Shown here: in pieces, positions 5,801 to 22,642 of the stretch
Position numbering within the stretch: position 1 is the first letter of the stretch
How the letters are laid out: the number at the start of each line of letters is the position of its first letter
Assembly: GCA_964645705.1 (NCBI GenBank)
Contig: CAZYAB010000001.1
Location: 16,749-80,748, forward strand
DNA from: an uncultured Methanosarcinales archaeon
GTDB taxonomy: Archaea; Nanobdellota; Nanobdellia; Woesearchaeales; CAXGTL01
DNA length: 64,000 nt
Direction: 5' to 3'
Notes under the pieces: model-generated
The model's database searches: none
What the model was told of the DNA's origin: nothing
The model's input: the letters and a program-made list of their open reading frames with translations, nothing else
Translations under genes and position numbers: made by a program

Positions 5801-5812
5801 TTTATTATTTCC

Positions 5813-6301: not shown

Positions 6302-6319
6302 TATTCTTTCAACAATTTT

Positions 6320-6664
6320 TTAATTCTTAAGATTCATAATAGCTTTTGCAAGGTCGCCTTCTGCTTCTCTAATTGCATTCATTGCTTCTTCTTCACTACA
6401 ACCACATTGTTCAACAACAACCTTAATATCGTCTTTACTAATTTCTGGTTCAGTATCAATAGATCTTTCTTCAAAACTTCCTGCAACCTGAAAAGTTTCT
6501 TGCCCCATAGCATTGACCTTGCTTACACTAGGGTTTTGAAAAACCAATTCTTTATCTTCTAATCTAATGATAACTTCTTTTGCATCAATTTCTTCTTGCT
6601 TCATACCCATTTTTTTCATAGCTTGCTTCATCATCTTTGGGTTAATATTCATTCCTGGAAACAT
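6320..6664 (-). CDS. nac: nascent polypeptide-associated complex protein (archaeal NAC alpha; NAC domain + C-terminal UBA)
   Basis: MKQAMKKMGMKQEEID...EVIIRLEDKELVF (NAC domain) followed by DIKVVVEQCGCSEEEAMNAIREAEGDLAKAIMNL (UBA-like). The length (~114 aa) fits. Confidence 0.8.
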   Translation of the reverse strand: MFPGMNINPKMMKQAMKKMGMKQEEIDAKEVIIRLEDKELVFQNPSVSKVNAMGQETFQVAGSFEERSIDTEPEISKDDIKVVVEQCGCSEEEAMNAIREAEGDLAKAIMNLKN

Positions 6665-6934
6665 ACAATCATCCCCTCCATATATCTTTGTTTATAATTT
6701 GTATTTCTTTATATATTTTATATAAATTCATATATAGTCATATATAACATAATATAGTAGTTGTATCTTATATTTATAAATTTGCCTATATCTAACCACC
6801 AACATACTTATCCTGCAGTAGTAAAAATAGAAATATTTATATACTATATAATTTTCCTACTTATTGCTATAAAAAATAGGTTGATTTCTGTTAAAAAAAG
6901 GTGTAGACTAATTAATTTGTATAATTAATGTTTT
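6665..6934. promoter_or_regulatory. divergent AT-rich promoter region with multiple TATA-like boxes
   Basis: Intergenic between minus-strand nac and the plus-strand surface-protein block. It contains several TATATA / TTTATA elements and a GGAGGGG SD 6 nt upstream of ATG 6950. Confidence 0.3.
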
Positions 6935-6949
6935 GTGGAGGGGAAATAT

Positions 6950-9103
6950 ATGGCAAAAAAAAAACAAGGATTAGTACGAAGAATAGCTAGTGCAACAGCT
7001 CATAAAGTTGTTTCTTTAGCAAATGAATATGATAGTAGTGCACCAGCTCAAGAAGAAAAACCAAAGGAACCAGAAGAAGAATATGTTTTAAAACCTGAAG
7101 ATGTTTATTTCAAGATTGGCGATTCAGTTTATGGAACAACAGCTGCAACAAGAGATGTAAAGATAGGTTATGGAATGTGTATCAAAGGATTAGTTTATAC
7201 TGACGAGAGTATTGAACATATTAATGAATTAGAAGGTTCTCAAATTCTTAATGATCTAAAATCAAGTGTTATGTATAATTTTGTAGAAAATATTCTAAGA
7301 CATAAATTTTCAGGAGATAAATTAGATCCAACAGGAAGAGTACGTGCATTTCAATTACTAACTTATGGTACAAAAGTGGAAACTCCTTGTAAAGACTCAA
7401 AATTAGTTGATTTTTACAAAAATCAATTAAAGAAGAAAAAAGATACAGGACTTGTAATCATAGACGAAAGAACTGTTTATATGGATTTACTTAGAAAAAC
7501 TTACAGAGACGGATATGTAGAATTAGCTAGAGATAGATTAACAGAGATGTTAAAGGATACAGATTTATTAGATAATGAAGCATCTGTTGACGAAGCAGTT
7601 GCAATGGTCTATTCAGGACTTGATGACTCTCAAAAACAAAAATTAGCTAAAGGATTTAAAGAATCAGGAAAAGGACAAATAACTGAAATTACGCACGCTA
7701 TTGCAAGATTATTTTACATAGATCCTACAAAAGAATCAAAACCAACAAAAGAAATTGAAAGTAGAATAAAATCTAATCTTGTTAATGAAATGATAAGATC
7801 TTCAGTACAACCAACATTTAATGTAAAAGACAGATTACTGGCTCTTGCAAGTCTTTTCAAACAAGAAGAAGATAAAGCAGAGATTGATGCAAAAACATTG
7901 AAGAGATTTACTTCTGAAAAAGAATATCATATATTCGGTAATGAGGAACACTTTGATGCACCAACTTTAGAAGAAATGAGTAATGAAATTAATACTCACG
8001 TAAATCTAAAGATGATGCCTGTTGCAAGACAGATTGCATTACAGCAACAAGAACTCAAACAAAAATTGTTGTCTTATAGTGGAAAATCTGATGAACAATT
8101 GGGTGATCAAGAAAGAAAAGAAAAGCAAAGACTTGATGACGAAGCAAAGAAACTTAATGAACAACTTGAATTTGAAAAGGAAGCATATATTAAAACTCAT
8201 TTGGCTAGACTACAAACATTCATCAATGCAGAAGAAACAGTTGAAGTTAAAGATAAAGTAGAAAAAGGAAGAGCAGAATCAGCAATGGGTTTTAAAGATA
8301 CAAAAAGTAAGCTTAGAAGATACTCAGGACGTGCTGGTTTAGTAACTACATTGATATTATTGGGAGCAAGTGCTTGGTATTCTAAAACAGGCTTAGAATT
8401 AAATGAAACAAAATATATGAAAGGTCTTGGTCGTGCATCACCAACAGAAATCGCGTGGGCAATGTTTAGTGATCCTGAATTACCAGATACAATCAACCAA
8501 TACCTGTTACTTCAAGTTTCAGGCGCAACAGAAGCAATTGCAAGTAAAGTAGATGGTGTTACAACCACAATTGGAGACAAGGTTGACGGCGCAACAATAA
8601 CAATCGGTGAAAAGGTTGAAGGTGTAACAACTACAATTGGCGAGAAAGTAGAGGGTGTTACAACAACAATCGGTGAAAAGGTTGAAGGCGTTACAACCAC
8701 AATTGGAGACAAGGTTGATGGAGTTACAACAACAATCGGTGAAAAAGTTGATGGTGTCACAACTACAATTGGAAGTAAAGTTGATACAGCTGTTTCAGGC
8801 GTAGCAACATCAATTGGTGAAAAAGTAGATGGCGCTGTTTCAGGCGTAGCAACAACAATTGGAGATAAAGTTGATGAATATGCTGGAAGTGTTGAATCAA
8901 TCCAAGATAACATAGAAGCTGAAATACAAGCACAAATGAAAACAGTTGTTGACAGAATATCTGCTCTTGAATCAAAAGCACAATTAACACCTGCTGAAAA
9001 GAGTGAACTAGAAATGCTAAAACAGAATGTTGGTGGTCTTGTAAACACTGTAAACTATCTTAGAGACAAATTAAGACAAGTGAGAAAAGCCAACAGCAGA
9101 TAA
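6950..9103 (+). CDS. membrane-anchored coiled-coil protein with 11-residue tandem repeats (hypothetical)
   Basis: ATG at 6950 is preceded by GGAGGGG. A ~460-aa N-terminal soluble part is followed by one TM (GLVTTLILLGASAWY), then ~10 tandem 11-aa repeats (TIGEKVEGVTT) and a C-terminal coiled coil. No signal peptide. Confidence 0.6.
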   Translation: MAKKKQGLVRRIASATAHKVVSLANEYDSSAPAQEEKPKEPEEEYVLKPEDVYFKIGDSVYGTTAATRDVKIGYGMCIKGLVYTDESIEHINELEGSQILNDLKSSVMYNFVENILRHKFSGDKLDPTGRVRAFQLLTYGTKVETPCKDSKLVDFYKNQLKKKKDTGLVIIDERTVYMDLLRKTYRDGYVELARDRLTEMLKDTDLLDNEASVDEAVAMVYSGLDDSQKQKLAKGFKESGKGQITEITHAIARLFYIDPTKESKPTKEIESRIKSNLVNEMIRSSVQPTFNVKDRLLALASLFKQEEDKAEIDAKTLKRFTSEKEYHIFGNEEHFDAPTLEEMSNEINTHVNLKMMPVARQIALQQQELKQKLLSYSGKSDEQLGDQERKEKQRLDDEAKKLNEQLEFEKEAYIKTHLARLQTFINAEETVEVKDKVEKGRAESAMGFKDTKSKLRRYSGRAGLVTTLILLGASAWYSKTGLELNETKYMKGLGRASPTEIAWAMFSDPELPDTINQYLLLQVSGATEAIASKVDGVTTTIGDKVDGATITIGEKVEGVTTTIGEKVEGVTTTIGEKVEGVTTTIGDKVDGVTTTIGEKVDGVTTTIGSKVDTAVSGVATSIGEKVDGAVSGVATTIGDKVDEYAGSVESIQDNIEAEIQAQMKTVVDRISALESKAQLTPAEKSELEMLKQNVGGLVNTVNYLRDKLRQVRKANSR
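8553..8880 (+). repeat. 33-nt tandem repeat array (about 10 units) inside CDS
   Basis: Near-identical 33-nt units (acaac[at]acaattgg[ac]ga[ag]aa[ag]gt[at]ga[ag]gg[tc]gt…) encode the TIG[ED]KV[ED]GVTT repeats. Confidence 0.85.
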
Positions 9104-9172
9104 AATATTTTTTATTTTTCACTTTTTTATCTTTTTAATTTAAAAAAATGAGATCACCAAAAAACAAAAAAA

Positions 9173-11515
9173 ATGGAACAACAACAAGAACCAAAATTAG
9201 GTAAATATTTGGTTAGTTTTTTAGGTGATTACAAAATAGGGAAAAGTCTTCTTATGGTTTTACTTCTTTCAAAACTAGCACTCAAATCAAAACATCAAAT
9301 AGCAAACATATGTGATGAACATTCTTATTTGGAAAGCTATTATTATAAAGGAAGAAAAAAAATAAAAGAGGGCGCTTTTAAGTTCATTGGATGCGAGATA
9401 GATACTTCTCCTAGTTTTGCAAGATTATTTGGTAATTTCTATGAAAGGGGTAAAACATCAGAAGTAAATATTGAAGGAGCAAAGATTTACATAAATAAAG
9501 GATTAGAACAAGTATTAGACGAAATTGAAAACGGCGTTGTAATTACTAGTTTCAGTGGCGGAACTGCTTATGCAAATTATTTGAAAAAACCAGTCAATAC
9601 TATCAACTATGTTTTTTTAGATAGGGACGGTAAATCAGATGATGCACTTTTAGAATTATTAAATTTTCATTATGATGGTTTTTTGAATAAGATCTCAGAC
9701 ATCAATTCTTACGAACAAGAAGATAAAAAGAGTTTTATAAAGACAACACAAAGACTGATTCATCAAAAGTATGATGACACTTCTAATATAGGTTTTACCC
9801 AAACATTCAATGAAAGATCAAAAACATTGATTCAAGCATTTTTTATTTCAGAGATAAAGAATCATATGAAAATAAATAATAATCATGAACCTTTATCACA
9901 CATTATCAGAGATTATTTAGTAAATATTGATTCTAAAAATCTGAGTGAGAGTTCTGTTTTAACTCTGGACCAACTTCTTTTAAGAAAAGGATATGTGTCT
10001 GATGAATTCTTACATAGAACTTTGTCATCAATAAAAGAAATAAGAAAAAAAATAAAATGTAATGATTCTGTTGTTATAAAAGCGTTATTTGAAATGTCAA
10101 TGTCTCATTCATTATTAGAACAACATTTCGAAAACATATACTCTCATGATTTTAATAGAGTTATAGCAAGAAATACAGTTAGGTGTAATGAAAAATTTCA
10201 AAGATATAATGTGGATAATAGAACTAGAGTAAGTAGTAATGCACACAATCTTGCATTTTTCCTATTAGAAAAATTTCTTCCAAACAGAATTTCAGATATA
10301 TTTGAAATCATGAAACAAAAACATTATCATGATCATATAAAAAAGAATAATTATAATTTTTTAGTAGATGTATCAGAAGCAAATCAGGATTTAAGATATA
10401 TTTTTTCAAACACAATTCCTTTTTTATTAATAAGAGGATATTCAAAGAAAAACATAAGAGATATTGCTATGAAACTAAACATTGGTTTTGCAGATAATGA
10501 AAATAATGGATTTATAGATAAAGTAGGCATCATTAAAAAAAGATTATTTGAGGACCATGATTTTAGAAATCAATTGATTAGAGATTATGAATCACTTAGC
10601 GAAATTATAATGTCACAAATAAAACCATTTGGTGAAAATCAGTCTGCATTAGACCCTAAGTATAAGAAAATAGCCATTGATCATAATTCTTATAGCCTGA
10701 TCCAAACATTAGAATCGCCTGAACTAGAAGGTGAATTAGTATCAAACATCATGCACTTAAGATCTGTATTTGATCCCCACATATTCTTTTTTGGCGGAAA
10801 ATTAGATTTGTCTAAAGGTTCAAAAATCATGGCAAGAGATCTTCTGATTAGTCAATATTCAGAGATAGTGGATAAATTTGATTGGAAACCTAATTACATA
10901 GGAGAATTTGAATTCAATGAGGAATTAGAACTATTAACAGATGGACAAATTCCTATTTTTGAATGGTCGCCTGAGGAAAAAGACAATTTAGTTAAGAAAA
11001 TAGAAAATTACATGAAAACAATAAAGCAACAAGGTCATGAAAACCAAAAACAAGCAAATTATTCAGAAGAACAAAAGAAAACAAAATTAGTTTCTTTTCT
11101 AAAATCTTTTACAAAAAGAAACAAAGAAAAATTAAAACAACTTTCTCCTAGACAAAGGGAAGAAATTCGTATGAGGGCAATTAATCATTATAAAAATAAA
11201 TTAAAATCTATGTGTGATGAATATAAAAAGATTTTTATAGAACTAAATGACCAATTTGAAGAGTTATCTTTTATTCCTAATGTTGAGAATATTTTAGAAA
11301 TATTGTGTGGCACAATATATGAAATACACAATAGAAAAAATAAAATACAAAACCCTGAACAATTTGATTTTGAAACTTTTATTAAAGATCATTTAATAAA
11401 ATACAAAGAATTAGAAATGAGAATAAAACAACACTCTTATTCAAGATCACAAGAACAAAGAACAAAAGGAGTGTTAGGATATTTTAGAAAGACTGCTTCA
11501 CAACAAGCTCCATAA
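9173..11515 (+). CDS. large cytoplasmic hypothetical protein with N-terminal P-loop (Walker A) motif
   Basis: 780 aa, no TM. GDYKIGKS (G-x4-GKS) lies at residues ~18-25, and VFLDRDG could be a Walker B / G3 DxxG. The rest is helical with no known domain. Confidence 0.5.
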   Translation: MEQQQEPKLGKYLVSFLGDYKIGKSLLMVLLLSKLALKSKHQIANICDEHSYLESYYYKGRKKIKEGAFKFIGCEIDTSPSFARLFGNFYERGKTSEVNIEGAKIYINKGLEQVLDEIENGVVITSFSGGTAYANYLKKPVNTINYVFLDRDGKSDDALLELLNFHYDGFLNKISDINSYEQEDKKSFIKTTQRLIHQKYDDTSNIGFTQTFNERSKTLIQAFFISEIKNHMKINNNHEPLSHIIRDYLVNIDSKNLSESSVLTLDQLLLRKGYVSDEFLHRTLSSIKEIRKKIKCNDSVVIKALFEMSMSHSLLEQHFENIYSHDFNRVIARNTVRCNEKFQRYNVDNRTRVSSNAHNLAFFLLEKFLPNRISDIFEIMKQKHYHDHIKKNNYNFLVDVSEANQDLRYIFSNTIPFLLIRGYSKKNIRDIAMKLNIGFADNENNGFIDKVGIIKKRLFEDHDFRNQLIRDYESLSEIIMSQIKPFGENQSALDPKYKKIAIDHNSYSLIQTLESPELEGELVSNIMHLRSVFDPHIFFFGGKLDLSKGSKIMARDLLISQYSEIVDKFDWKPNYIGEFEFNEELELLTDGQIPIFEWSPEEKDNLVKKIENYMKTIKQQGHENQKQANYSEEQKKTKLVSFLKSFTKRNKEKLKQLSPRQREEIRMRAINHYKNKLKSMCDEYKKIFIELNDQFEELSFIPNVENILEILCGTIYEIHNRKNKIQNPEQFDFETFIKDHLIKYKELEMRIKQHSYSRSQEQRTKGVLGYFRKTASQQAP

Positions 11516-11529
11516 TAAGGTGAAAACAA

Positions 11530-12453
11530 ATGCATAAAACAAAAAACACAGATCAAAACAGCAATCAAAATAATAATCAAAACAGCAATCAAAATAATAA
11601 CCAAAATAATAACCAAAACCCTAATCAAAACAATTATTTTCATAAAATGTTGTTGTTAGCAGCAGGTATTGTTGCCGCAGGTTACATGTTTTTATGTCCT
11701 GTAAAATCATCAGCAGAAACAACTGAATCAAAAAAAACAATTGATGATGTTGTCAGAAGATTCACTGTAAAACAATCCCAAAAACAACAACCAAAAAAAC
11801 CAAATTATATTATTTTACGTGAACAAAGATATATTGAACTTTGCAATCTTATTTACCAAAGTTGGGATAAGATTTCAGAAAGAATAAATAGATTAGATAG
11901 AGAAAATAAAACAGATAAAAGAAATGATTCCGCAGCAGTTGATGAGTTGTCACAAGCAGAAGAGTATATTTCATTTGTTTCTAAAGAATCTGAACCAAAT
12001 TTTGATGATTTTAATCAAAGGGAATTAGTAAGAAGATTATTATTATTAGAAAAGGTTTACAATGCAAGACCCAAGGAAAAGAATTATTTTAGAGACAATT
12101 TTAGATTAGGTTATGGTGTTAAATGGAGAGAGGACCAAAATAGATGCATGATTACTTGGGGAAATGATGAATACAAATTCAAGTGGTCTGACAGAGACGG
12201 CAGTTATTTTATGAAGTGGGACACAGATGGCAACCCTATTTTTAGATTTTATAAAAAACAAAAAATTCATAGAAAACCAAAAACAGGATCATCATCTTCA
12301 TCTCAACAATCACAACAACAAGATCCTCAAAATCAAACACAAACACCTGAACAAGAGCCACAGCCAGAACAAGATCAAGAATTTCCTTCAGAAAATGGAT
12401 CAGGAGAAGGAAGTTCTGATGATTACACTGATTATTCGAATTTTGGTTTTTAA
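11530..12453 (+). CDS. secreted or membrane-anchored hypothetical protein with N/Q-rich N-terminus and acidic C-terminal motif
   Basis: AGGTGA lies 6 nt upstream of ATG. The N-terminus has (NQN) repeats, then a hydrophobic segment MLLLAAGIVAAGYMFLCPV. It ends …DQEFPSENGSGEGSSDDYTDYSNFGF. Confidence 0.5.
   Translation: MHKTKNTDQNSNQNNNQNSNQNNNQNNNQNPNQNNYFHKMLLLAAGIVAAGYMFLCPVKSSAETTESKKTIDDVVRRFTVKQSQKQQPKKPNYIILREQRYIELCNLIYQSWDKISERINRLDRENKTDKRNDSAAVDELSQAEEYISFVSKESEPNFDDFNQRELVRRLLLLEKVYNARPKEKNYFRDNFRLGYGVKWREDQNRCMITWGNDEYKFKWSDRDGSYFMKWDTDGNPIFRFYKKQKIHRKPKTGSSSSSQQSQQQDPQNQTQTPEQEPQPEQDQEFPSENGSGEGSSDDYTDYSNFGF
11563..11640 (+). repeat. short tandem nucleotide repeat (aatcaaaa[ct]a[gat]caat…) encoding NQN low-complexity
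   Basis: Repeats of caaaacagcaatcaaaataataa/ccaaaataataac are directly visible. Confidence 0.6.
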
Positions 12454-12671
12454 TCATTGAACCGAAAATATCACAAAAACAACAAAAAATTTAATGACCA
12501 CTATATAATACTAACATTGCGAAAGATTTATATATAATAATAGATTTACACAGTAAAAGTTTACCATAGTATAATAAAAGAGGTTCTAAAAGAGGTTTCA
12601 CAAATTTAATGTTATTAGGGGTGTTTAGATTTAGGTGATAGTGTAGATAGTATCATGTGGAGGGATATAAT

Positions 12672-13778
12672 ATGGAAAATAAAAAAACTTTTAGAACAAT
12701 AGGTGCTCTGGTTTTATCAGGAACAATGCTTTTTAATTCTGCTTTTGGATATGTGTCAAGAGCATTAGGTGTAGAACCATCTGGTGAAACTACAAGAACA
12801 GAACAAACAACTGAATATAGATTAAAAGGAAATGATAATATTGAATCATTTGTTAAAAATACTATAATGATTGAAGAATATAAGGAAACAAAGGATTTAA
12901 GTGGAATTTCTGTTGATTCATACATGGGCGCAATTCTTAATCAAGGTTTACTACCTTATCTTGAAGAAGGAGATGTTTCAGAAATGTATCTTGATGAGAA
13001 CTTAGATGCAACTGGTAATGGCAGATTAATTTTTGTTTCAGAAAGTGGAGCTCCAATATCTCCTATGCCAGTTAGTCCTGTATATTTCCCTGCTATTAGG
13101 CAAGGAATAATAGAATATGCAAAAAAAGCATTAGCACAAAATCAGAAACTAGATCCAGATGAAGCTATTAAAGATCCTAAATTTGTTGCAAAAGTGGAAC
13201 AAGATCTATTAGATTCAGTAGAAGAAACTAGAACAAATGAATCTGTGAAAACAAGACAAGCATTACTTAAAGAATACAATGAAGCTCTTGCTAGAGCAGA
13301 ACCAGTTATGTATAAAGGCGGAACAGCAGAAGAACCTGGAAAAGGTTCAACAAAACACAGAATCCTTAAATTAGATGGGGAAGGAAAACTGTATACAGAT
13401 AAAGCAAAAACACAATTAAATACAGATTATAGACAAGATGTAATTTCATTAGAAGATCTAGCAGATGCTGAAAAATTGATTGCAACAAAACCCAATCCAA
13501 ATAACATGAGTGATGAAGTACTTCAAGAAAACATCATTTTATTGAATGGTTCTCATGATGCAAGTGATACTGTTAATAAAATTTCTGCAGGTGCAATTGG
13601 AGGAGTACTAGGCGGTCTTTACTTCTTAACAAGAGACGGCGGATCAACACCAGGAACACCTGTAGAACAAGTTGATGAACCTCAAGGAGAAGATGATCAA
13701 GAATTCCCTGACAATACAGGAGAAGGAATTTCAGATGACGAAGACAGAACAACACTTGAAGAAGAAATTGGTTTTTAA
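12672..13778 (+). CDS. secreted hypothetical protein sharing a C-terminal motif with the upstream gene
   Basis: ATG 12672 is preceded by GGAGGG. Signal peptide MENKKTFRTIGALVLSGTMLFNSAFG. It ends …DDQEFPDNTGEGISDDEDRTTLEEEIGF. Confidence 0.55.
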   Translation: MENKKTFRTIGALVLSGTMLFNSAFGYVSRALGVEPSGETTRTEQTTEYRLKGNDNIESFVKNTIMIEEYKETKDLSGISVDSYMGAILNQGLLPYLEEGDVSEMYLDENLDATGNGRLIFVSESGAPISPMPVSPVYFPAIRQGIIEYAKKALAQNQKLDPDEAIKDPKFVAKVEQDLLDSVEETRTNESVKTRQALLKEYNEALARAEPVMYKGGTAEEPGKGSTKHRILKLDGEGKLYTDKAKTQLNTDYRQDVISLEDLADAEKLIATKPNPNNMSDEVLQENIILLNGSHDASDTVNKISAGAIGGVLGGLYFLTRDGGSTPGTPVEQVDEPQGEDDQEFPDNTGEGISDDEDRTTLEEEIGF

Positions 13779-13899
13779 TTTTTTTATTTTTTCATATTAA
13801 TAATACTATTATTATAATATAAGAAAAGAAAAAAAGAGGGAAAAAGAGGAAAAGCAAATCAAAATAAAAAATAAAACAAAATTCAGAGGTTATAAAAAA

Positions 13900-16800
13900 A
13901 TGAAAACAAAAAATATTTTATTTTTCATGTTCATAATGATCATGTTAGCATTAACTGCTTCTGGAGTCTTTGCAGCAGAATCAAGATTCACTGTTAAGAC
14001 AGCAGCAGTTGATAGAGATACAAGAGATTATATTAACCCTTGTAATATTAATCTTGGTGGTGTTGAAAAGATAGGTACACCTAATGCTAATTATGAAATC
14101 AATTCCAATACAGTTTATGCTGTTACACATTCAGCAGACGGTTATGAAACAGACACAGATTATATATTTCTTGATGAAAATTTAGATTCATGTGAAGGAG
14201 AAAACACAGGCGATATGTGTTATTTAACATCTTATAGTTCTTCTGATTCAGAATTCAATACTGTTTGCGAATTCAGTGCAGAATATCAAAGCTGGCTATG
14301 CGATGTAACAAATAATGGTAGAACAGAATCATACATCTATGCACAAGAACAAGGAGCTGTTGCATATGTTATCAATACATTATCACCAGTTGACCAAGAA
14401 AATCAACCACCTGTTGTTGATGTTGAAGCAACACCTTTAGAAGGAGAAGCACCTCTAGAAGTAACATTTACAATCGATGTAACAGATGATGAATCAATCA
14501 GCAGAGTAATGGTATTTTTTGGTGACGATACATCAACACTTGCACAAGAACAAAGCATTGTTATACACACTTATGAAAAACCAGGTATATATGAAGCACA
14601 AATAGTTGCTCATGATAATCAAGGTCTTCCAACAGAAGAAATAGTTGAAATAACTGTTTCAGAACAACCAGGAGCAGACACTTTCTTAGTAAAAACAGCT
14701 GCTGTTGATAGAGAAACAGACGAATACATAAATCCTTGTAATATTAATCTTGGAGGTGTTGAAAAAATAGGAACACCAAATGCTAATTATGAAGTAAATT
14801 CAAACACAGTTTACACTGTTACACACTCAGCTTCTGGTTATGAAACAGACACTGATTCTATTTATTTAGATTCTCATTTGATCTTATGTGAAGGAGAAAA
14901 TACAGGTGATGTATGTGAATTATCAAGTTATAGTTCTTCTGATATTAAGTTTGACACTGTTTGTGAATATAGTGCAGAAAGCCAAGGATGGTTATGTGAT
15001 GTAACAGATACAAGTAAGGACAAAACACAGTCATATATTTATGATCCATTCCAAGAAGGCAATGTTGTTTATGTCATAAATACATTAGCACCAGTTGATC
15101 CTGAAAATCAACCACCTGTGGTTAATGCTCAAGTACTTCCTTTAGAAGGAGATGCACCATTAAATGTTGGATTTACAATCGATGTAACAGACGACGAATC
15201 AATTAACCAAGTAATTGTATTTTTCGGAGATGGTTCATCTCAAGAAACAGATCCACAAGACTTTATAATACACACTTATACTCAACCAGGAACATATACA
15301 GCAGAAATAGTTGCTCATGACAATCAAGGTTTACCAACAATAGTTGAATATGAAATAACTGTAAATAGGGTTCAAGCATATCCTATTATTGTCAAAGCAG
15401 AAGCAAATCCGGCTATTGGAACAGCACCATTAGAAGTTACATTTTCAAATGAAGTAACAGATGATGGTTTTTTCAAAAAAGTAGAATGGGATCTTGGTGA
15501 TGGAACAAAAGTTATTGTTGATGCTGTTGCTGAATTCACTTATACTTATGAAAATGATGGAGATTATGTTGCGACTTTAACTGCAACTGATAATGAAGAT
15601 TTAACTGTTCAATCTGATGGAATATTTATTGAAGTTTTAGAATGGAATCCTCAAGCAAATGTTTATCCTTCTGTAACAATCCATTCACCACAACAAGGAG
15701 ATGTTGTGATTGGTGATCTTGATGTTAATGTGCAAATGTTAGATCCAGACGGAACAATTGATGAATATGCAATTGAATTATTAGATGAAAACGATGATTT
15801 TGTTAATTTATTATCTCATGGTCATCCTTATGAACAAGGTGTAATTTATTTTAATTCATTTGATTCAACAATTTTTGCAGATGGAAATTATAAAATAAAA
15901 GTTCATGCATGGGATAATGAAGGTGCACATACATCTGTTACATCAGGGTTGTTTGAGATAGACAATATAGCACCAAGTGAAAACACACCACCAGTACCTA
16001 AAATCTATGAACCTGATGAAGGTGAAGTATTTTCAGGAGATGAATCAATTGTTTTTGAAGTTTATGATGAACAAGGTGGAGACATAGAAATAGCATTAGT
16101 ATTAGAATATGAACCATCAGGTGAAAAAGATACATTATTACAAACAGTTGTAGAACTAGATCCTTATGAAGTTTTTGAATTTGATGAAGTATTCCAAACA
16201 GAATATTATCCAGATGGAATGTATACATTAAGATTATTTGCAACTGATGAAGATTATGAAAGAGAAGATCATGTTTTGTTTGAAATAGACAATTTCGAAG
16301 CAGAAGTTCATGTTGAATTCATACAACCACAAGATGGAGATGTAATCGATGGCATCTATGAAATACAATGGGATGCTTATGAGTATGAAGGAGCAGAACC
16401 AGTTGATGATGAACCTGCAAAAGAAGAAGATGAAGAAATAGATGAAGACGAAGTAGAAGAATTCTTAGAAGAATTAGCAGATGAATTAGAAGATGAATTA
16501 GATGATGAGTTTGGATTATTATTAACAGATGATTTCATAGAAGAAGTTGCAGAATATGTAGTAAATATTATGGAAGAAGTATTATATGATATAGATGATA
16601 TTGATGATCTAGAAGAAGTCTTAGAAGAATTTGCAGAAGAATTCTATGATGATCTAGAAGATGAGTTAGGAGATTTATTACCAGAAGAAACAATAGAAGA
16701 CATGACTAATTTAGTTATGGATGTGATTATTGATACACTTGATGATTATGAAGATATGTTTGATTATTTAGGAACATTTAATTCACCATCAACATATGCA

Positions 16801-17727
16801 ACTTCATCAGGAAGTGGATCAGGAGGATCATCTGGTGGAGGCGGATCAGGTGGTTCAACAATTGATAATTTAAAGATTAGCATATTTTATGTTAACATAG
16901 ACAAAGGACAATGGGGAATGCTTGCTACTGAACTTGATAACACAGGATCATATATCTTTGATACAAATGATTTAATAGATGGTCGTTATATTTTTGAGAT
17001 CTATGCAGAAAGCCCAGAAACTCTTGAGTGGGATTATGATTCAGTTGGTTTAATATATATAGATAATTATGAAAATGAACCAATTGCACATGCTGGTTAT
17101 GATACAGCAGCAGTTGTAGGCGAAACAGTTATTTTAGATGGTTCAAGATCATATGATGTTGACCCATATGATGATCTTAATTTTTATTGGCAACAAATAA
17201 CAGGACCAGTTCCATCTGCAATTATGAACCAATATAGTAGGTTTGCATCATTTGTACCAGCAGCACCAGGAACTTATTTGTTTAATTTATGTGTTGATGA
17301 TGGATATTATGGAGATTGTGATGAAGTTATAATAACAGTAACAGGCGAACCAATGCCTCAAGCATTAAAAATAATGAAACCACAAGAAGAAGAAAAAGAA
17401 CCATTAGTAAGAGACATATTTGTTAGCAGTGTAGAAGCAGATGACAACAAGGTTTATTATGAACCTGGTGAAAGAATGCATCTTAGTGTTTCATTTGCAA
17501 ATGAATTAGAAGAAGACATTGAACAAGCAACTGTTCAAATAATTGCACCAAAACTAAGATTATTAAGAGAATTTGGTCCATTTGAACTAGAAGAAGAAGA
17601 GATGGTTACTAAAGAAGTAGTATTCACAATACCCGAAGATGCAAAACCAGGAACTTATGAAGTAAGGGTAATAATCACAACACCAGAAGATCAAAGAGTA
17701 AAAATAAGAAAGATCAAGATATTATAA
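13900..17727 (+). CDS. large secreted cell-surface protein with PKD-like domains, internal ~230-aa duplication, acidic and Gly/Ser linkers
   Basis: Signal peptide MKTKNILFFMFIMIMLALTASGVFA. Two PKD-like signatures (APLEVTF…DDxxI…HTY, WDLGDGT) and a third Ig-like module near the C-terminus. Also a D/E-rich stretch and an SSGSGSGGSSGGGGSGGS linker. Confidence 0.7.
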   Translation: MKTKNILFFMFIMIMLALTASGVFAAESRFTVKTAAVDRDTRDYINPCNINLGGVEKIGTPNANYEINSNTVYAVTHSADGYETDTDYIFLDENLDSCEGENTGDMCYLTSYSSSDSEFNTVCEFSAEYQSWLCDVTNNGRTESYIYAQEQGAVAYVINTLSPVDQENQPPVVDVEATPLEGEAPLEVTFTIDVTDDESISRVMVFFGDDTSTLAQEQSIVIHTYEKPGIYEAQIVAHDNQGLPTEEIVEITVSEQPGADTFLVKTAAVDRETDEYINPCNINLGGVEKIGTPNANYEVNSNTVYTVTHSASGYETDTDSIYLDSHLILCEGENTGDVCELSSYSSSDIKFDTVCEYSAESQGWLCDVTDTSKDKTQSYIYDPFQEGNVVYVINTLAPVDPENQPPVVNAQVLPLEGDAPLNVGFTIDVTDDESINQVIVFFGDGSSQETDPQDFIIHTYTQPGTYTAEIVAHDNQGLPTIVEYEITVNRVQAYPIIVKAEANPAIGTAPLEVTFSNEVTDDGFFKKVEWDLGDGTKVIVDAVAEFTYTYENDGDYVATLTATDNEDLTVQSDGIFIEVLEWNPQANVYPSVTIHSPQQGDVVIGDLDVNVQMLDPDGTIDEYAIELLDENDDFVNLLSHGHPYEQGVIYFNSFDSTIFADGNYKIKVHAWDNEGAHTSVTSGLFEIDNIAPSENTPPVPKIYEPDEGEVFSGDESIVFEVYDEQGGDIEIALVLEYEPSGEKDTLLQTVVELDPYEVFEFDEVFQTEYYPDGMYTLRLFATDEDYEREDHVLFEIDNFEAEVHVEFIQPQDGDVIDGIYEIQWDAYEYEGAEPVDDEPAKEEDEEIDEDEVEEFLEELADELEDELDDEFGLLLTDDFIEEVAEYVVNIMEEVLYDIDDIDDLEEVLEEFAEEFYDDLEDELGDLLPEETIEDMTNLVMDVIIDTLDDYEDMFDYLGTFNSPSTYATSSGSGSGGSSGGGGSGGSTIDNLKISIFYVNIDKGQWGMLATELDNTGSYIFDTNDLIDGRYIFEIYAESPETLEWDYDSVGLIYIDNYENEPIAHAGYDTAAVVGETVILDGSRSYDVDPYDDLNFYWQQITGPVPSAIMNQYSRFASFVPAAPGTYLFNLCVDDGYYGDCDEVIITVTGEPMPQALKIMKPQEEEKEPLVRDIFVSSVEADDNKVYYEPGERMHLSVSFANELEEDIEQATVQIIAPKLRLLREFGPFELEEEEMVTKEVVFTIPEDAKPGTYEVRVIITTPEDQRVKIRKIKIL
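13978..15364 (+). repeat. intragenic tandem duplication (two ~690-nt copies)
   Basis: Protein segments FTVKTAAVDRDTRDYINPCNINLGGVEKIGTPNANYE… and FLVKTAAVDRETDEYINPCNINLGGVEKIGTPNANYE… are ~70% identical over ~230 aa. Confidence 0.7.
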
Positions 17728-18050
17728 TAATGTCATGATCTTATTTTTTTATTATTTTTACGATAAGATTATCCTAACATTTAAAAAATAATGCTCATTA
17801 TTCATGGAAAACATTAAAAAAAGAGGCAAAATGTGACAAAAATGTCGCACGTGTGTCGTATATAGCCAGGGAGTGATTTATTGACCCTTATAGATAGTAA
17901 AATTTATATATCAATTGTGACTCCCAAATGGTTATTAAAAGTAGTCACTCCAAAATAGAAAACTTTAAATATTGGAACAGATTACTTTGATCATATATGG
18001 CTCGTAAGAGAACCTAAAAATCTTAAAACAATGTAGGAGGGATATTAAAA

Positions 18051-19553
18051 ATGGTTATGAAAAAATTTTTAGGATTAACACTATTAGTTGTACTGATGTT
18101 TAGTGCTTTTGTATCAGCATCTGCATTAGACGAACTAAGATGGGAACAAGAGTATATGCATGAGAGAGGAAGAAAGGTTTTAGTTGTTGACAGAATCGAA
18201 GTAGAAGGCACAGATGTTCTAGAATTTCATCCTGAAAACAGACCTGTTATCGACCTTAATAGAGGAGAAGAATTAGAAGTTGAAGTAACTCTAATGAATA
18301 AGATGACAGATGTTGAAGATGAAGAAGTTTGGGACCCTATCGAAGGATGGGAAACTCAATATGTAGACATCGATGTTGAAGACGCAACAATGTATGTTTC
18401 TTTTTGGTATGAAGATGCAGAAGAAGAAGGTACAATGGATAGAGTAGAAGTTGATCTTGATGCTGGAGCATCAGATTCATATACTGCTAAACTAAAGCTA
18501 CCAAAAGATATGCCACAAGAAGAAGCACAACTATACATAGAAGTAAGAGACAAGTCAGGACAAGTATGGTTAATGTCACACGTATTTGATCCAATGTATG
18601 AAGAACCTGATGATGATTGGTATGAATATGGTGAATGGGTTTATCTGAATGACTTCTTTGATGGTGGAATTCCTCTAACAATAAGAGCTCAAAGTGAACA
18701 CTTAATAGACATTAAGGATATCATGCTACACCCAGAATCTAGAGTTACAGCTGGTGATTTATTAACAGCTCAAGTAAGGCTAGAAAATATTGGTGAAGTG
18801 GATATTGAAGAAGATGATGTTAAGGTTACAGCAAGAGTGCTAGGATTAGACGATGCAATGGATTCAACATATCTATTAAAAGAATTAGAATATGAAGATG
18901 AAGCATCAACAGAACCACTTAGCTTTTACATACCGCTTTGTGCAAAACCAGGAGAATATACTTTAGAAGTTACTGTTGAATATGATGATGGCGACGAAAA
19001 GCAAACTGCAGAAAGAAAAATAACTGTTGTTGGGTCTGGTTCAGACATGTGTGCTGAAAAAGCTCAATCAGGAGAAACATCAGTTAACATAATTAGTGGA
19101 ATGCAAGTTTTAAGTGAAAGTCAAAAAATGGCAACATTCCCAGTTGTAATAACAAACAATGCAGACACATCAAAAGCATTTGTTGTTAGTGCTGACGCAC
19201 TAGGCGATTGGGCATCTGAAGTAAAAGTTCAAGAAACTTCAGTAGTTATTGACGCAGGAAAACAAAAAACAGTTTTAGTACTTGCAACTGCTAAAGATGA
19301 CGCACAAGCTGGTAAACAATTAGTTTCAATAAAAGTTAAAGACTCAGAAGGAAACACAGTTCAAGAAGAAGCAGCTGAACTAAGCATTGCTGGTTCAACA
19401 GGCGGATTTGGAAAGATGTCCTTTAGAAGAGTTTTAGAAGTTGGACTGATTGTATTAGTAATATTGTTAGTGCTTTTAGGCTTAATCATAGGTTTTAACA
19501 AATTAAAAGAAGATGAAGAAGACCTAGAAGAAGAAGACAAAAGCTATTACTAA
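18051..19553 (+). CDS. secreted acidic protein with C-terminal TM anchor (hypothetical)
   Basis: TAGGAGGG SD. Signal peptide MVMKKFLGLTLLVVLMFSAFVSASA. A C-terminal hydrophobic helix VGLIVLVILLVLLGLIIGF is followed by an acidic tail. Confidence 0.55.
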   Translation: MVMKKFLGLTLLVVLMFSAFVSASALDELRWEQEYMHERGRKVLVVDRIEVEGTDVLEFHPENRPVIDLNRGEELEVEVTLMNKMTDVEDEEVWDPIEGWETQYVDIDVEDATMYVSFWYEDAEEEGTMDRVEVDLDAGASDSYTAKLKLPKDMPQEEAQLYIEVRDKSGQVWLMSHVFDPMYEEPDDDWYEYGEWVYLNDFFDGGIPLTIRAQSEHLIDIKDIMLHPESRVTAGDLLTAQVRLENIGEVDIEEDDVKVTARVLGLDDAMDSTYLLKELEYEDEASTEPLSFYIPLCAKPGEYTLEVTVEYDDGDEKQTAERKITVVGSGSDMCAEKAQSGETSVNIISGMQVLSESQKMATFPVVITNNADTSKAFVVSADALGDWASEVKVQETSVVIDAGKQKTVLVLATAKDDAQAGKQLVSIKVKDSEGNTVQEEAAELSIAGSTGGFGKMSFRRVLEVGLIVLVILLVLLGLIIGFNKLKEDEEDLEEEDKSYY

Positions 19554-19661
19554 ACCTTTTTTAATTTAATTTTTTTTCTTTATTTTTTTAACAACAAACA
19601 TAGCAAAAATTAATCAATGAATAAAAAGGGGGATAACAAAAAATAGAAGGTATTGTAAAAA

Positions 19662-22613
19662 ATGCATATAAAGGTTGATAGATCTGAAAAAAAATCAATT
19701 TATGTTTCTCATGTTTCTATAATTTTATTTTTTACGTTCCTATTTATTGTTCTATTGTCATCAAATGTTTTATCAGTAGAGGATTTCACAGCTTACACAG
19801 CAAATCCAGATGATATTTCATTTGATCTTTGTCAATGTTCGCCAAGAATATTAGAATTTAAGATAAAAAACATAGGTTATTTAGATCATTCTTATAATAT
19901 TCATTTTGAAAACACAGCAAAGAACTTTGTCCAACCAAGCAAATCTTCAATATCAGTTGGATCTGGACAAGAAAAAGTATTTTATGCTTTAGTAGGTGCT
20001 CCTTGCAATGAAAAAGGAACATATGTCTTAGACACAATGATAATAGATGATCAGGGCCTTGCAAAAAAGATAACTCATACAATGAACATAAAAAGATGCA
20101 TTAATATTGATGTAGTACCTATTAATCAGAACCAAACAACTTCATCATGTAAAGCATTGGTTTATGAATATAAAATAAAAAATACAGGTGATTTTCAAGA
20201 AACATATGATATAAAAATTAAGCCAGAGTCAAGAAAAATCAAGAAATTTATATCAACTAACAAAAAATCTTTTGTATTAAAGCCAAAAACAGAAGAATCT
20301 TTACTTGTTTATTTTACTCCTGATTGTAATTATTTTGGTCATACTATGAATAAATTGATTATTTATACTGATAATACAGATCTAAAAGCTACTACTTATT
20401 TTGAGATCAATGTTTTGCCTAAATTCGACTTCTTAGCAAATATAGACGAAGAATTCAACCTTTGTGAACAAAAAGATTATATTAAAAACATTTACATAAA
20501 AAATCAAGAAGATAAAGCACAAAAATTTTTATTATCAATTCAGGAACCAAGCTTCGCAGATCTTTCAGCTAAATCAATTACATTAGGCCCTGATACAGAA
20601 TACGACTTGAATTTCACTTTATCTCCTGGAAAAGATTCTAAAGGAGACTATCCTTTATTATTAAAAATTAAGCTAGAAGATGGGCCAGCATTAAAAACAC
20701 TTAGTTCAAATATTACTGTAAATGAATGTTATGATTTTGATATAACTTTGCCTGATAGTCCTAAAGCATGCAATAAGGAACAGTCAAAAATACCAATTAC
20801 TATTATTAATAATGCCGAAACAGATGAAGAATTTGAATTAGAATTTGAATCAGATGATGAAAAGTACAATTCAACTAAATTTGAACAAGAAACAATAACA
20901 GTAACAAAAGATTCTGAAAACAACGCATTTTTATTGATAACTCCTGATGATGATATATTTGTAAGGGGAACTATCATTGCAAGACCAAAATCAAATCCTG
21001 ATTTAGAAATAGAAAAAACAATATTAATAAGAACTGTTTCAGAAGACAAATGTTATGAGATTATAACTTTAGAAGATGAGTTTGTTTTGCCAAAGAATGA
21101 TTCCAGGAAATCTATTGAATTAACATTAAAAAACACAGGCGTCTTAAAAACAGATTATGATCTTGCAATAGAGGACACAGAACAATTATTTTCATTAGAT
21201 ATAGATAAATTAACACTAGAACCAGGTGAAGAATCATCAATTAACTTAAATTATGATATTCCTGAAAATATAAGTAAAATTAGATTTGAAGCACTTTTAT
21301 TAGCTAGCGTCAGTACAGAAAATTACACCTATTCTTCAAAACTAATTCTAAGAAAACAAACCACATTCTCAGATTTATTTAAATATAATAACTTACGTAT
21401 TTTAGGTATATTAATAATATTTATACTTTTAGTTATTATTGCATTTATAATTTACATTCAGAAAACAGAAGGCGCATTTAAATCTAAGAAAAAGAAAGAT
21501 AAAAAAACAAAAGAAAAGGTTAAAAAGAAAGGAGTTAAACACAAAGCAGAGAAAAAAGTAAAAAAAAAGAAAAAGAAAAAGAAGAAAAAACCAAAGAAAT
21601 TCTTTGATGTTGATCTTAAGTTTTCAGATAAACATCTTGAAAAAGGCTATGTGTTTGATTTTGATAGAAAACCTAAAAAAACAACTTCGTTTTGGAAATA
21701 TTTCTGGATAATAATTTGCATTTTAGTGATTATTTTGTTAATAATAGGTGCTTATTATTATATGCCGACTATTAAAACAAAAGTCTCTACAAGTTTTAAT
21801 ATTACATTAGGCGATAAATTGAATAATAAGTTACTTAGTGCTTTTAATTTTTCGTCACTTATTCAGCCAATAGATATAATAACTGATCAACAAGAACCAG
21901 ACCAAACAGATACGCAGGATTTTGTAGAGGAAATAGATGAAGAAGAAAAAATAAAGGATGATGAAGTGGAAGAGGATAAAGATGATGAAGAAGAAATGGA
22001 TGAAGACGAAGAAGAGCCAGAAAAAGTAGAAGAAGAACACACAGATATTGGTAAAGAAATAATGCAAGAATTTGAAAGAAAAAGACAAGAATTAGATAAA
22101 CCAAATAAAACAATTGAACCTAAATTTGATCCGTTATTAATAAAGAGCACAATTCTAAGCTATGGTTCATCTTATTTATATTATTTTTACTATCTTATTT
22201 TTGCTATATTAATATTATTCATTTTAATATTAGTGATAAATCGTTTAAAAAAGGGGGGAGAGAACAAAAAGCCAGAAAAAAAAGCAAAAAAACACAAAGT
22301 AAAAGTAAAAACAAAAAAAGTAAAAGCATCCAAAACCATAAGAAAAGCAAAAAGCAAAAAAACAAGACCCAAATCTAAAAAAGATAAGAAAGTCTCACAA
22401 GAGAGCAAAACAAAGTTTTGGAAAATTCTTTTATGGATTTTATTGATTATGGTGATTGCTTTCCTAATAGTTTATTACATAAACATGATAAGAGAATATC
22501 TTTACTATGTTTTAATAGGAGTAATTATTTTGATAATATTGATAATAATTGATAAAAAAAGGCAAAAACAAGATAACAACACCAATAAAAAGAGTACTAA
22601 TAAAAAGAAATGA
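19662..22613 (+). CDS. large multi-pass membrane protein with alternating poly-Lys and poly-Asp/Glu linkers (hypothetical)
   Basis: N-terminal TM, a ~520-aa Cys-containing ectodomain, then 5 further TM helices. These are separated by K-rich (KKKKDKKTKEKVKKKG…) and D/E-rich (EEIDEEEKIKDDEVEEDKDDEEE…) segments. Confidence 0.5.
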   Translation: MHIKVDRSEKKSIYVSHVSIILFFTFLFIVLLSSNVLSVEDFTAYTANPDDISFDLCQCSPRILEFKIKNIGYLDHSYNIHFENTAKNFVQPSKSSISVGSGQEKVFYALVGAPCNEKGTYVLDTMIIDDQGLAKKITHTMNIKRCINIDVVPINQNQTTSSCKALVYEYKIKNTGDFQETYDIKIKPESRKIKKFISTNKKSFVLKPKTEESLLVYFTPDCNYFGHTMNKLIIYTDNTDLKATTYFEINVLPKFDFLANIDEEFNLCEQKDYIKNIYIKNQEDKAQKFLLSIQEPSFADLSAKSITLGPDTEYDLNFTLSPGKDSKGDYPLLLKIKLEDGPALKTLSSNITVNECYDFDITLPDSPKACNKEQSKIPITIINNAETDEEFELEFESDDEKYNSTKFEQETITVTKDSENNAFLLITPDDDIFVRGTIIARPKSNPDLEIEKTILIRTVSEDKCYEIITLEDEFVLPKNDSRKSIELTLKNTGVLKTDYDLAIEDTEQLFSLDIDKLTLEPGEESSINLNYDIPENISKIRFEALLLASVSTENYTYSSKLILRKQTTFSDLFKYNNLRILGILIIFILLVIIAFIIYIQKTEGAFKSKKKKDKKTKEKVKKKGVKHKAEKKVKKKKKKKKKKPKKFFDVDLKFSDKHLEKGYVFDFDRKPKKTTSFWKYFWIIICILVIILLIIGAYYYMPTIKTKVSTSFNITLGDKLNNKLLSAFNFSSLIQPIDIITDQQEPDQTDTQDFVEEIDEEEKIKDDEVEEDKDDEEEMDEDEEEPEKVEEEHTDIGKEIMQEFERKRQELDKPNKTIEPKFDPLLIKSTILSYGSSYLYYFYYLIFAILILFILILVINRLKKGGENKKPEKKAKKHKVKVKTKKVKASKTIRKAKSKKTRPKSKKDKKVSQESKTKFWKILLWILLIMVIAFLIVYYINMIREYLYYVLIGVIILIILIIIDKKRQKQDNNTNKKSTNKKK

Positions 22614-22642
22614 TTATATACTTTTTCTTTATCCCTTATATT

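Follow-up and report, generated by a model that had tools for sequence, protein, structure and literature searches.

Woesearchaeota are abundant, uncultured, small-genome archaea that probably depend on contact with other cells. A described parallel to the surface locus treated here is the SlaA/SlaB pair of the Sulfolobales, in which a large, unanchored secreted protein, SlaA, is followed by a smaller, C-terminally anchored protein, SlaB, and both are heavily N-glycosylated. Putative surface-layer (S-layer) proteins that have been described for DPANN archaea are rich in N-glycosylation sequons (bioRxiv 10.1101/2023.10.27.564410), and in the metatranscriptome of a lake S-layer protein genes ranked among the ten Woesearchaeotal genes with the highest expression (PMC11606122). 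Here we analysed a block of genes within a 64,000-nucleotide stretch of DNA (positions 16,749 to 80,748 of contig CAZYAB010000001.1, assembly GCA_964645705.1; hereafter the window, in whose coordinates positions are given) that GTDB places in the Woesearchaeales. An initial annotation, made from the letters of the DNA, had described six genes on the plus strand, although its own list held seven items. Open reading frame (ORF) calling and translation gave seven co-oriented plus-strand ORFs within 6935-22613, referred to below as P1 to P7 (Table 1), and the public gene calls for identical contigs give the matching seven-gene set.

With moderate confidence, we read this block as being of two kinds: P5, P6 and P7 as a conserved putative S-layer locus, and P1 to P4 as a fast-evolving, almost family-less set of genes upstream of it. 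The initial annotation had proposed a single novel module, and this proposal had to be given up for P5-P7, which belong to an already catalogued, widespread family context in which homologues of P6 already bear the name 'putative S-layer protein'. Family-less genes are confined to P1-P4, an uncharacterised accessory set that may be new. Other parts of the description held up: the products of the block are envelope or secreted proteins among which no enzyme can be recognised, none of them shows homology to any well-characterised family of cytoplasmic proteins, and synteny is conserved, with the order of the block (P3 aside) present in two other lineages and part of it in a third, and with a P5-P6-P7 core across Woesearchaeota.

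Within the conserved part, family membership is shown for P5 and P6. P6 matches the NCBIfam model NF033506, 'putative S-layer protein', with 104.4 bits (E = 6.3e-30, model positions 276-615 of 627), and has the signal peptide, the Ig-like domains and, in its C-terminal part, the transmembrane (TM) segment, NKLK, acidic tail and final YY that characterise this family, but it is without the N-terminal 275 positions of the model, and the five closest relatives carry an additional acidic insert. In the protein collection we found 140 homologues (E down to ~1e-32, many spanning 85-100 % of the query). Among GTDB representative genomes the number of confirmed relatives is at least 274, and these genomes bear the label Woesearchaeota or Nanoarchaeota. 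Genomes labelled Candidatus Woesearchaeota or Nanoarchaeota are also the source of the block proteins' nearest relatives. (Note that some third-party assemblies bear a 'Methanosarcinales' label, apparently wrongly.) The closest P6 relative is at locus L008 (60 % identity by BLAST, 67 % in an alignment of 33 family members, A1). The species of the window is not itself among the GTDB representatives; in the closest of these (locus L015) P6 identity is 54 % (60 % as a global identity, Table 1). The AlphaFold2 (AF2) model built from A1 has a pLDDT of 80.4 and consists of three beta-sandwich domains and a TM helix at residues 458-493, consistent with the C-terminally anchored secreted protein of the initial annotation. 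The best conserved part of A1 is this helix together with the cytoplasmic NKLK, the acidic stretch and the YY end, and its invariant columns are G477, L478, G481, F482, L485, Y499 and Y500. Moreover, the YY terminus is present in 74 of the 75 family members from the fetched loci, each of which has exactly one member. This conservation suggests that the tail has a cytoplasmic binding partner or undergoes a processing step. (The stretch of DNA encoding the cytoplasmic tail, the most conserved part of the family, is 19470-19553.)

P5 is secreted, unanchored and very acidic (22 % D+E). It is laid out as two copies of a ~260-aa module, three PKD domains and Big_7-like domains, then an acidic linker followed by a K319L-like PKD domain and, at the C-terminus, a CARDB/MG2-like domain; PKD_4 (115.6 bits over three stretches, cutoff 27), PKD (97.1 bits) and K319L-like_PKD (42.8 bits) all scored above the Pfam gathering scores, in agreement with the initial description of a 1275-aa PKD protein. 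The orthologues of P5 range from 565 to 1275 aa. In the P5-like protein of L008 (1612-3708 of that locus) one segment is 45 % identical to residues 212-391 of P6, so that Ig modules are exchanged between the outer and the anchored protein. P7, described initially as a 983-aa multi-pass protein, indeed has a signal peptide and ~5 TM segments; between them lies an Ig-like array of ~540 aa, and the multi-pass region has Lys-rich inside loops and an acidic outside loop. Homologues of P7 follow the same plan of signal peptide, Ig array and Lys-rich multi-pass membrane region. Owing to shared Ig modules, P5, P6 and P7 group together in one cluster.

The arrangement of these genes is conserved far beyond the close relatives. 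In 77 distant loci, sampled up to 10 kb either side of P6, P6 is immediately followed by a P7 homologue in 47 of the 70 loci with room for one, and immediately preceded by a P5-related protein with detectable homology in 26 of 61. When homology was not required, a large signal-peptide protein was found directly upstream of P6 in 34 of 48 loci (median length 885 aa), and just one of these 34 proteins has an extra strong TM segment. A geranylgeranyl-reductase-family gene occurs within 10 kb of P6 in 40 of the 77 loci, and the gene for the oligosaccharyltransferase AglB in 21. For Woesearchaeota, these findings yield a concrete, phylum-wide candidate envelope set, comprising a variable outer protein, P6 with its invariant YY tail, and P7.

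From the signal peptides, the anchors and the conserved order we infer how such a layer might be built. P5, P6 and P7 would be exported by Sec via their N-terminal signal peptides. P6 would be held by its C-terminal helix, with three Ig-like domains outside and the short, strictly conserved acidic YY tail inside, and P7 would be held by its multi-pass domain and display the longer Ig array. P5, being large, unanchored, very acidic and variable in length, would then rest on the P6 and P7 anchors as an outer, contact-making layer, following a logic like that of SlaA on SlaB; the formation of a lattice and a role in host contact would be further steps in this model. The locus is also linked to the polyprenyl-reductase-type gene and AglB downstream of it. 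The likeness to SlaA and SlaB lies in the order of the genes, a large unanchored secreted protein and then a smaller C-terminally anchored one, in similar sizes (1275 aa for P5 and 500 aa for P6) and in Ig-like domains throughout. However, neither P5 nor P6 has sequence similarity to SlaA/SlaB, the P6 model runs from a beta domain straight into the TM helix without a coiled-coil stalk, and P7, the third conserved partner, has no Sulfolobus counterpart.

A further difference from SlaA/SlaB lies in the frequency of N-x-S/T sequons, as P5 and P6 have none. For P5 this is 0 sequons in 1275 residues when ~7.6 are expected by composition, and its three orthologues (L015, L016 and L008) have 0, 0 and 1 against 5.6, 6.0 and 5.1 expected, for a total of 1 against 24 in the four proteins. 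P6 has 0 against 1.1 expected, its four closest relatives also have 0, and the 33 family members together have 22 against 66. The sequons of P7 are not depleted (11 against 6.6 expected). Thus, the acidic secreted proteins P5 and P6 seem to avoid N-glycosylation, though they are encoded beside AglB, the gene for which lies ~2 kb downstream of P7.

The genes upstream of P5 behave differently. P1-P4 are restricted to four closely related lineages, in which the orthologues are 24-32 % identical, as compared with 60-81 % for the flanking genes (Table 1), and the accessory set is confined to a small marine or saline clade. The order NAC-domain gene, P1, P2, P4-like gene, PKD protein, P6, P7, reductase, 189-aa gene and AglB is kept in two lineages, one represented by L004 and L015 and the other, from Tara Oceans, by L009, L010 and L016; only the Tara lineage has an additional 487-aa gene between the NAC-domain gene and P1. 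From a third lineage, also of Tara origin (L012-L014), there is an incomplete contig that carries P1 and P2. Profiles of P1, P2 and P3/P4 gave zero matches in the 77 other Woesearchaeal loci, and word-index homology searches with P1 and P2 found no relatives beyond the query. Moreover, 2.9 million viral contigs scanned with the P1 and P2 profiles contained no relatives, a metagenome scan with the P2 profile just recovered the Tara loci again, and sequence searches of the PDB with P1, full-length P2 and the P2 family profile gave nothing useful. When 1.84 billion representatives were searched exhaustively with P2 by HMMER, at least two relatives were found (30 % and 28 % identity), a count that is a lower bound since the library missed the L004 orthologue, which surfaced via synteny.

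P1 was initially described as a TM-anchored coiled-coil protein with 11-mer repeats, and this is what we found: a cytoplasmic N-terminal domain of ~470 aa, one weakly hydrophobic TM segment (residues 474-489 counted from the ATG, 479-494 in GTG numbering), a 33-bp tandem repeat encoding 11 residues (GEKVEGVTTTI; ~10 copies, DNA 8535-8876), and a C-terminal coiled coil for which an extracellular location is predicted. The topology is likely N-in, C-out, because all four orthologues follow the positive-inside rule and there is no signal peptide. The orthologues at L004, L009 and L012, 24-27 % identical, have the same architecture, the common plan being ~470-500 cytoplasmic residues, one TM segment, and then charged, periodic repeats and coiled coil over 150-220 residues. 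The repeat unit varies by species (14, 18 or ~8 residues in orthologues), and its copy number varies between two Tara strains, whose proteins are 669 and 655 aa long. The 11-mers recall those of apolipoproteins and alpha-synuclein, and P1 matches Pfam Apolipoprotein weakly (E = 3.8e-9) and alpha-synuclein in the PDB, but its 37 bits are far below the PF01442 cutoff of 90, and it is only a periodic helical character that is conserved and not the repeat family. Other weak matches of the repeat and coiled-coil part are to ZorA and phage tape-measure proteins (best PHROG E = 1.2e-05). In a comparison of the window with assembly ERZ23499057 (L001), the sole difference across 21.5 kb was an A to T change at 8612, which converts AAG to TAG at P1 codon 555, in the second 11-mer repeat. 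Such a stop would delete most of the predicted extracellular part, and it represents a variant within the population or else a mistake in the assembly. (Note that a 178-aa antisense ORF at 8512-9048 on the minus strand, where one public annotation has a 133-aa gene, is most likely an artefact of the codon periodicity of the P1 repeats.)

P2, which the initial annotation called a 780-aa P-loop protein, is cytoplasmic and consists of a putative N-terminal alpha/beta region of ~175 aa followed by ~600 aa of predicted helices. Its Walker A motif is GDYKIGKS (residues 18-25), and GD-x3-GK[ST] is invariant in the four orthologues despite an identity of 24-30 %; D77, G129-G130, R151, H166-Y167 and several motifs of the helical region are invariant as well. 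As regards Walker B, D77 follows a hydrophobic stretch, the strand at 122-130 ends in S/P-G-G with no acidic residue, and Asp 149 is Lys in one orthologue. Searches of Pfam, NCBIfam, PHROG and PADLOC with P2 gave no family match, and single orthologues gave weak leads to GvpD_P-loop (E = 0.02) and NPHP3_N (E = 0.013). The only PDB match of the N-terminal profile was to FlaH/ArlH (4YDS), which has a similar GD-x-G-x-GKS context of Walker A, but the match has an E of 0.074 over ~60 aligned residues, archaellum genes are absent nearby, and P2 is three times longer. With the MinD/ParA proteins P2 shares a Walker A after a beta-strand and, ~105 residues on, a hydrophobic strand and P/S-G-G at the place of Walker B; it differs from them in having GDxxxGKS rather than the deviant KGGxGK[ST], in a helical extension of ~600 residues, and in matching none of Pfam CbiA, ParA or AAA_31. 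An hhalign comparison of the P2 family with two canonical MinD proteins gave a probability of 16.5 %, confident at Walker A only. We also considered that P2 might be of ABC type, with SGG as the signature motif and a Walker B-like strand, and rejected this as there is no profile evidence for it; a BY-kinase was rejected as well, P2 having no Tyr cluster and no Walker A'.

P3 and P4 have the common C-terminal tag that had been reported for them. P3 begins with an N/Q-rich stretch, which is followed by a TM segment or signal anchor (residues 37-59) and a ~200-aa domain, and its Q/S/E/P-rich tail ends in DQEFPSENGSGEGSSDDYTDYSNFGF. P4 resembles it only in the tail; it carries a signal peptide for secretion and, close to the C-terminus, a hydrophobic Gly-rich segment (AGAIGGVLGGLYFL), and its tail is acidic and ends in DQEFPDNTGEGISDD and then EEEIGF. 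The tag, EPQxExDQEFP..N.GEG.SDD...GF-COOH, is found nowhere else in the window and is strong just between P3 and P4 of this species; across the orthologues the Gly-rich patch and the terminal Phe remain. Thus the P4 orthologues of L004 (233 aa, ending KYPF) and L009 (264 aa, ending DANF) keep the signal peptide, the hydrophobic patch and the terminal Phe, and the 172-aa counterpart at L008, a locus without P1 and P2, ends in GDGQSR with no terminal Phe (a single case). P3 was seen in this species only, and profile searches of the related loci found no counterpart beyond the P4 orthologues. The N/Q-rich repeat of P3 (11543-11634, with units of 12 and 36 bp) probably varies in length between strains; a 282-aa variant clusters with the 307-aa protein at 90 %. 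The hydrophobic Gly-rich segment and following tail of P4 and its orthologues, as well as the tag shared with P3, are reminiscent of archaeosortase signals of the PGF-CTERM type. However, the P3 and P4 tails extend over 40-50 residues and are acidic and Phe-ended rather than short and basic, they contain no PGF-like motif, and P3 has no hydrophobic segment before its tail. The sorting-signal models of NCBIfam did not match P3 or P4, and there was no archaeosortase among the window ORFs scanned. A link between these Phe-ended tails and the YY tail of P6 was rejected, as the YY is phylum-wide and P1-P4 are clade-specific.

A similar architecture occurs at two distant loci, L088 and L090, whose P5 and P7 are those most similar to the proteins of the window. 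When the region upstream of P6 was scanned for large proteins encoded on the same strand and bearing Walker A at the N-terminus, exactly these two loci were returned. As listed in Table 1, each combines a bitopic protein (with 18-residue repeats after the TM segment at L090, with a coiled coil at L088), a large P-loop protein and a secreted protein ahead of the P5-like gene, and the P-loop protein of L088 is a member of the CbiA/MinD/ParA family, that of L090 having the deviant Walker A of MinD/ParA (GKGGSGKS). Three further loci (L049, L041 and L067) have P1-like and P4-like genes and no P-loop gene. With a rule-based filter, a P1-like architecture was found in 4 of 95 same-strand ORFs upstream of P6 as compared with 0 of 253 other ORFs, though the filter is crude and overlooks P1 itself as well as the manually recognised L041 and L067. 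These observations are suggestive of a recurrent accessory set whose sequences have diverged past recognition. (Note that the protein at the P4 position of L088 has PG_binding_1 repeats scoring 38 bits, above the cutoff; these are peptidoglycan-binding, which is odd in an archaeon, and they may hint at binding to the cell wall of another organism.)

Position and architecture would be what ties P1-P4 to P5-P7 in function. Tentatively, and regarding it as possible rather than probable, we propose that P1, P2 and P4 with P3 make up a membrane-spanning tether. P2, a cytoplasmic nucleotide-binding protein with what is most likely a degenerate MinD/ParA-type domain and a long helical region, would organise the cytoplasmic domain of P1, the periodic coiled coil of which would cross the space beneath the surface layer; ~200 residues at 0.15 nm per residue would span ~30 nm at full extension. 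P4 and P3, its paralogue by tail, would be the exported partners, held by the Gly-rich hydrophobic segment and the Phe-ended acidic tail. The more specific idea that these proteins are an undescribed envelope apparatus of Woesearchaeota, in which a degenerate MinD/ParA-like protein would drive or position a coiled-coil stalk, along with the exported partner, at a defined place in the surface layer for tethering to or contact with a host, strikes us as rather unlikely as it stands, and so does its corollary that the apparatus evolves so fast that only its architecture survives, in the clade of the four lineages, at L090 and L088 and in part at L049, L041 and L067. In some lineages, in any case, the envelope genes are immediately preceded by inserted genes for a nucleotide-binding protein of the cytoplasm and for a coiled-coil protein that spans the membrane, and if the apparatus is real it would offer a lead into how Woesearchaeotal cells organise the site of host contact.

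A number of findings weigh against parts of this two-part reading. For P5-P7, the score of P6 is narrowly below the curated cutoff of NF033506 (104.4 as against 110 bits), and a Foldseek search of the PDB with the P6 model returned generic Ig-like arrays only, with bacterial SbsB ranked 26th; SlaA and SlaB chains were absent among the best 50 of the 1,802 matches, and Pfam gave no match to SlaA or SlaB. Since no S-layer protein of a DPANN archaeon has been determined experimentally (bioRxiv 10.1101/2023.10.27.564410), 'S-layer' is here an annotation and not a fact. The absence of sequons from P5 and P6 differs from known archaeal S-layer glycoproteins, and it weakens both the idea that the glycosylation island downstream exists to glycosylate them and a functional link to AglB. 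This absence would fit an alternative in which the block is a host-adhesion island, with P5-P7 as adhesins of an ectosymbiotic DPANN cell and the true S-layer encoded elsewhere or absent. PKD and Ig arrays are typical of adhesins, P5 changes in length from 565 to 1275 aa among close relatives and swaps modules with P6-like proteins, the ectodomain of P6 (~420 aa) is small for a lattice protein, and the PG_binding_1 protein of L088 points in the same direction. We nevertheless judge this alternative to be quite unlikely, because P6 occurs once per fetched locus, phylum-wide and with a highly conserved anchor, which better fits a structural housekeeping protein, and because the NCBIfam curators assign the family to the S-layer.

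For P1-P4, the points against concern both their association and the nature of P2. The latter has neither the signature Lys of MinD/ParA nor a clear Walker B (no conserved Asp), its AF2 model, from a three-sequence alignment, is unusable (pLDDT 39.5), and the L088 and L090 proteins showed no homology to P1, P2 and P4 beyond Walker A in profile comparisons and with hhalign. Moreover, L008 keeps the NAC-domain gene, the P4-like gene, the PKD protein, P6 and P7 without P1 or P2; synteny in close relatives proves little because it includes the housekeeping flanks equally; and T-runs immediately 3' of the P1, P4, P5 and P6 stops point to separate transcripts, so that several transcription units are likely rather than a single operon. 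Taken with the lack of matches in the 77 other Woesearchaeal loci, the retention of the core at L008, the collinear flanks and the T-runs after P1 and P4 could mean that P1-P4 are unrelated, lineage-specific orphans that came by chance to lie between the NAC-domain gene and the envelope locus, with P5-P7 as the only functional unit. This is doubtful, although it deserves serious consideration: co-orientation is preserved, P2 and P3 are just 14 bp apart, specific motifs survive at ~25 % identity, the distant loci L088 and L090 have the triad of bitopic coiled-coil, large P-loop and secreted protein at the corresponding place, and P1-like architecture is enriched upstream of P6. Far less probable is that P1 and P2 correspond to a polysaccharide co-polymerase and a MinD-like kinase split into two proteins, comparable to CapA/CapB or Wzc, which would serve the glycosylation island by controlling the export or chain length of a surface glycan. 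One could cite for it a membrane protein with an extracellular coiled coil next to a cytoplasmic P-loop protein of possibly SIMIBI type, the adjoining glycan-synthesis island of ~40 kb with its Wzx-type flippase, and the true MinD/ParA-family protein at L088; but P1 has one TM segment and not two flanking an outer domain, P2 lacks a tyrosine cluster at the C-terminus, a Walker A' and a clear Walker B, neither matches Wzz or BY-kinase, and the envelope genes separate P1 and P2 from the island. Still more remote is a mobile-element remnant or a defence or conflict system. Orthologues that diverge very quickly, an ATPase and membrane proteins would be in keeping with it, as would the weak ZorA and tape-measure matches of the P1 coiled coil and a GC content slightly raised across 8-20 kb. 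Against this, the viral contigs hold no relatives of P1 and P2, PADLOC gave none at E = 0.001 (P1 reached E = 0.004, 14.5 bits, with a cyclase model, and P2-P4 nothing), the PHROG matches of P1 all fall within the repeats and coiled coil, an integrase, a tRNA and flanking repeats were looked for in the window and not found, and the chromosomal position is constant in four species.

Table 1. Genes of the block, their neighbours in the window and the architectural analogues at two distant loci. Identities are global identities of orthologues to the window protein, for L015 and for Tara L009 or L016.
Locus	Feature	Positions	Strand	Description	Identity, L015 (%)	Identity, Tara (%)
Window	NAC-domain gene	6320-6664	-	Pfam	81	77
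Window	P1	6950-9103	+	717 aa counted from ATG; alternative GTG upstream at 6935	27	24
Window	P2	9173-11515	+	780 aa	26	30
Window	P3	11530-12453	+	307 aa		
Window	P4	12672-13778	+	368 aa; alternative GTG upstream at 12657	32	29
Window	P5	13900-17727	+	1275 aa	46	43
Window	P6	18051-19553	+	500 aa	60	64
Window	P7	19662-22613	+	983 aa	48	43
Window	Geranylgeranyl-reductase-family flavoprotein	22610-23809	+	Pfam; TIGR02032 150 bits, cutoff 158.8	70	68
Window	Conserved 189-aa protein	23867-24436	+	Downstream neighbour		
Window	Oligosaccharyltransferase AglB/STT3	24502-27783	+	Pfam; NCBIfam archaeo_STT3	64	62
L090	Gene 1			421-aa bitopic protein, 18-residue repeats after TM segment		
L090	Gene 2			797-aa protein with GKGGSGKS		
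L090	Gene 3			279-aa secreted protein, Gly-rich hydrophobic C-terminal patch and Pro/Thr tail		
L090	Following genes			P5-like, P6, P7		
L088	Genes 1-2			Partial bitopic coiled-coil protein; 394-aa membrane protein		
L088	Gene 3			884-aa protein, Pfam CbiA/MinD/ParA 51 bits, cutoff 25.4		
L088	Gene 4	4817-7090		757-aa secreted protein, PG_binding_1 and Gly-rich C-terminal TM segment		
L088	Following genes			P5-like, P6, P7, reductase, AglB		

The window is AT-rich (~27 % GC) and is archaeal, as the NAC-domain gene and AglB/STT3 are present in it; the DNA of the block recurs in three public metagenome assemblies at 100 % identity or with one mismatch. Within the block the gaps from P1 through P7 are, in order, 69, 14, 218, 121, 323 and 108 bp, and the stop of P7 overlaps the start of the geranylgeranyl-reductase-family gene by 4 nt. 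P1 and P4 start at ATG codons (6950 and 12672, respectively), and GTGGAGGG lies just upstream of both. Shine-Dalgarno-like leaders had been described for the genes in general; we found leaders of GGAGG type ahead of P1, P4 and P6 and weaker ones ahead of P3 (GGTGA), P5 (GAGGT) and P7 (AAGGT), and none ahead of P2. Similarly, the term low-complexity, which had been applied to all of the proteins, is apt for the repeats of P1, the N/Q run of P3, the acidic linker of P5 and the Lys-rich loops of P7, and not for the remainder of the block. Rfam and tRNA scans of the window gave no matches.

Next to the NAC-domain gene, on the minus strand at 4810-6301, lie three small family-less genes (173, 160 and 162 aa) whose order is kept in distant Woesearchaeota (L040, L083, L009 and L015 were compared), including the complete genome GW2011_AR15; Pfam, NCBIfam, PHROG and PADLOC gave no match to them. 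On the other side of the block, the glycosylation island reported initially is real and extends from 24.5 to 64 kb, with AglB, GT2, GT4, a flippase, epimerases and others. Within it, an unusual fusion at 51859-54252 encodes a 797-aa protein in which the membrane domain of a PMT_2-type (dolichyl-phosphate-dependent) glycosyltransferase is joined to a C-terminal cyclophilin peptidyl-prolyl isomerase (184 bits), and the island also contains two radical SAM genes (50448-51857 and 55163-56380), the former of B12-binding type.

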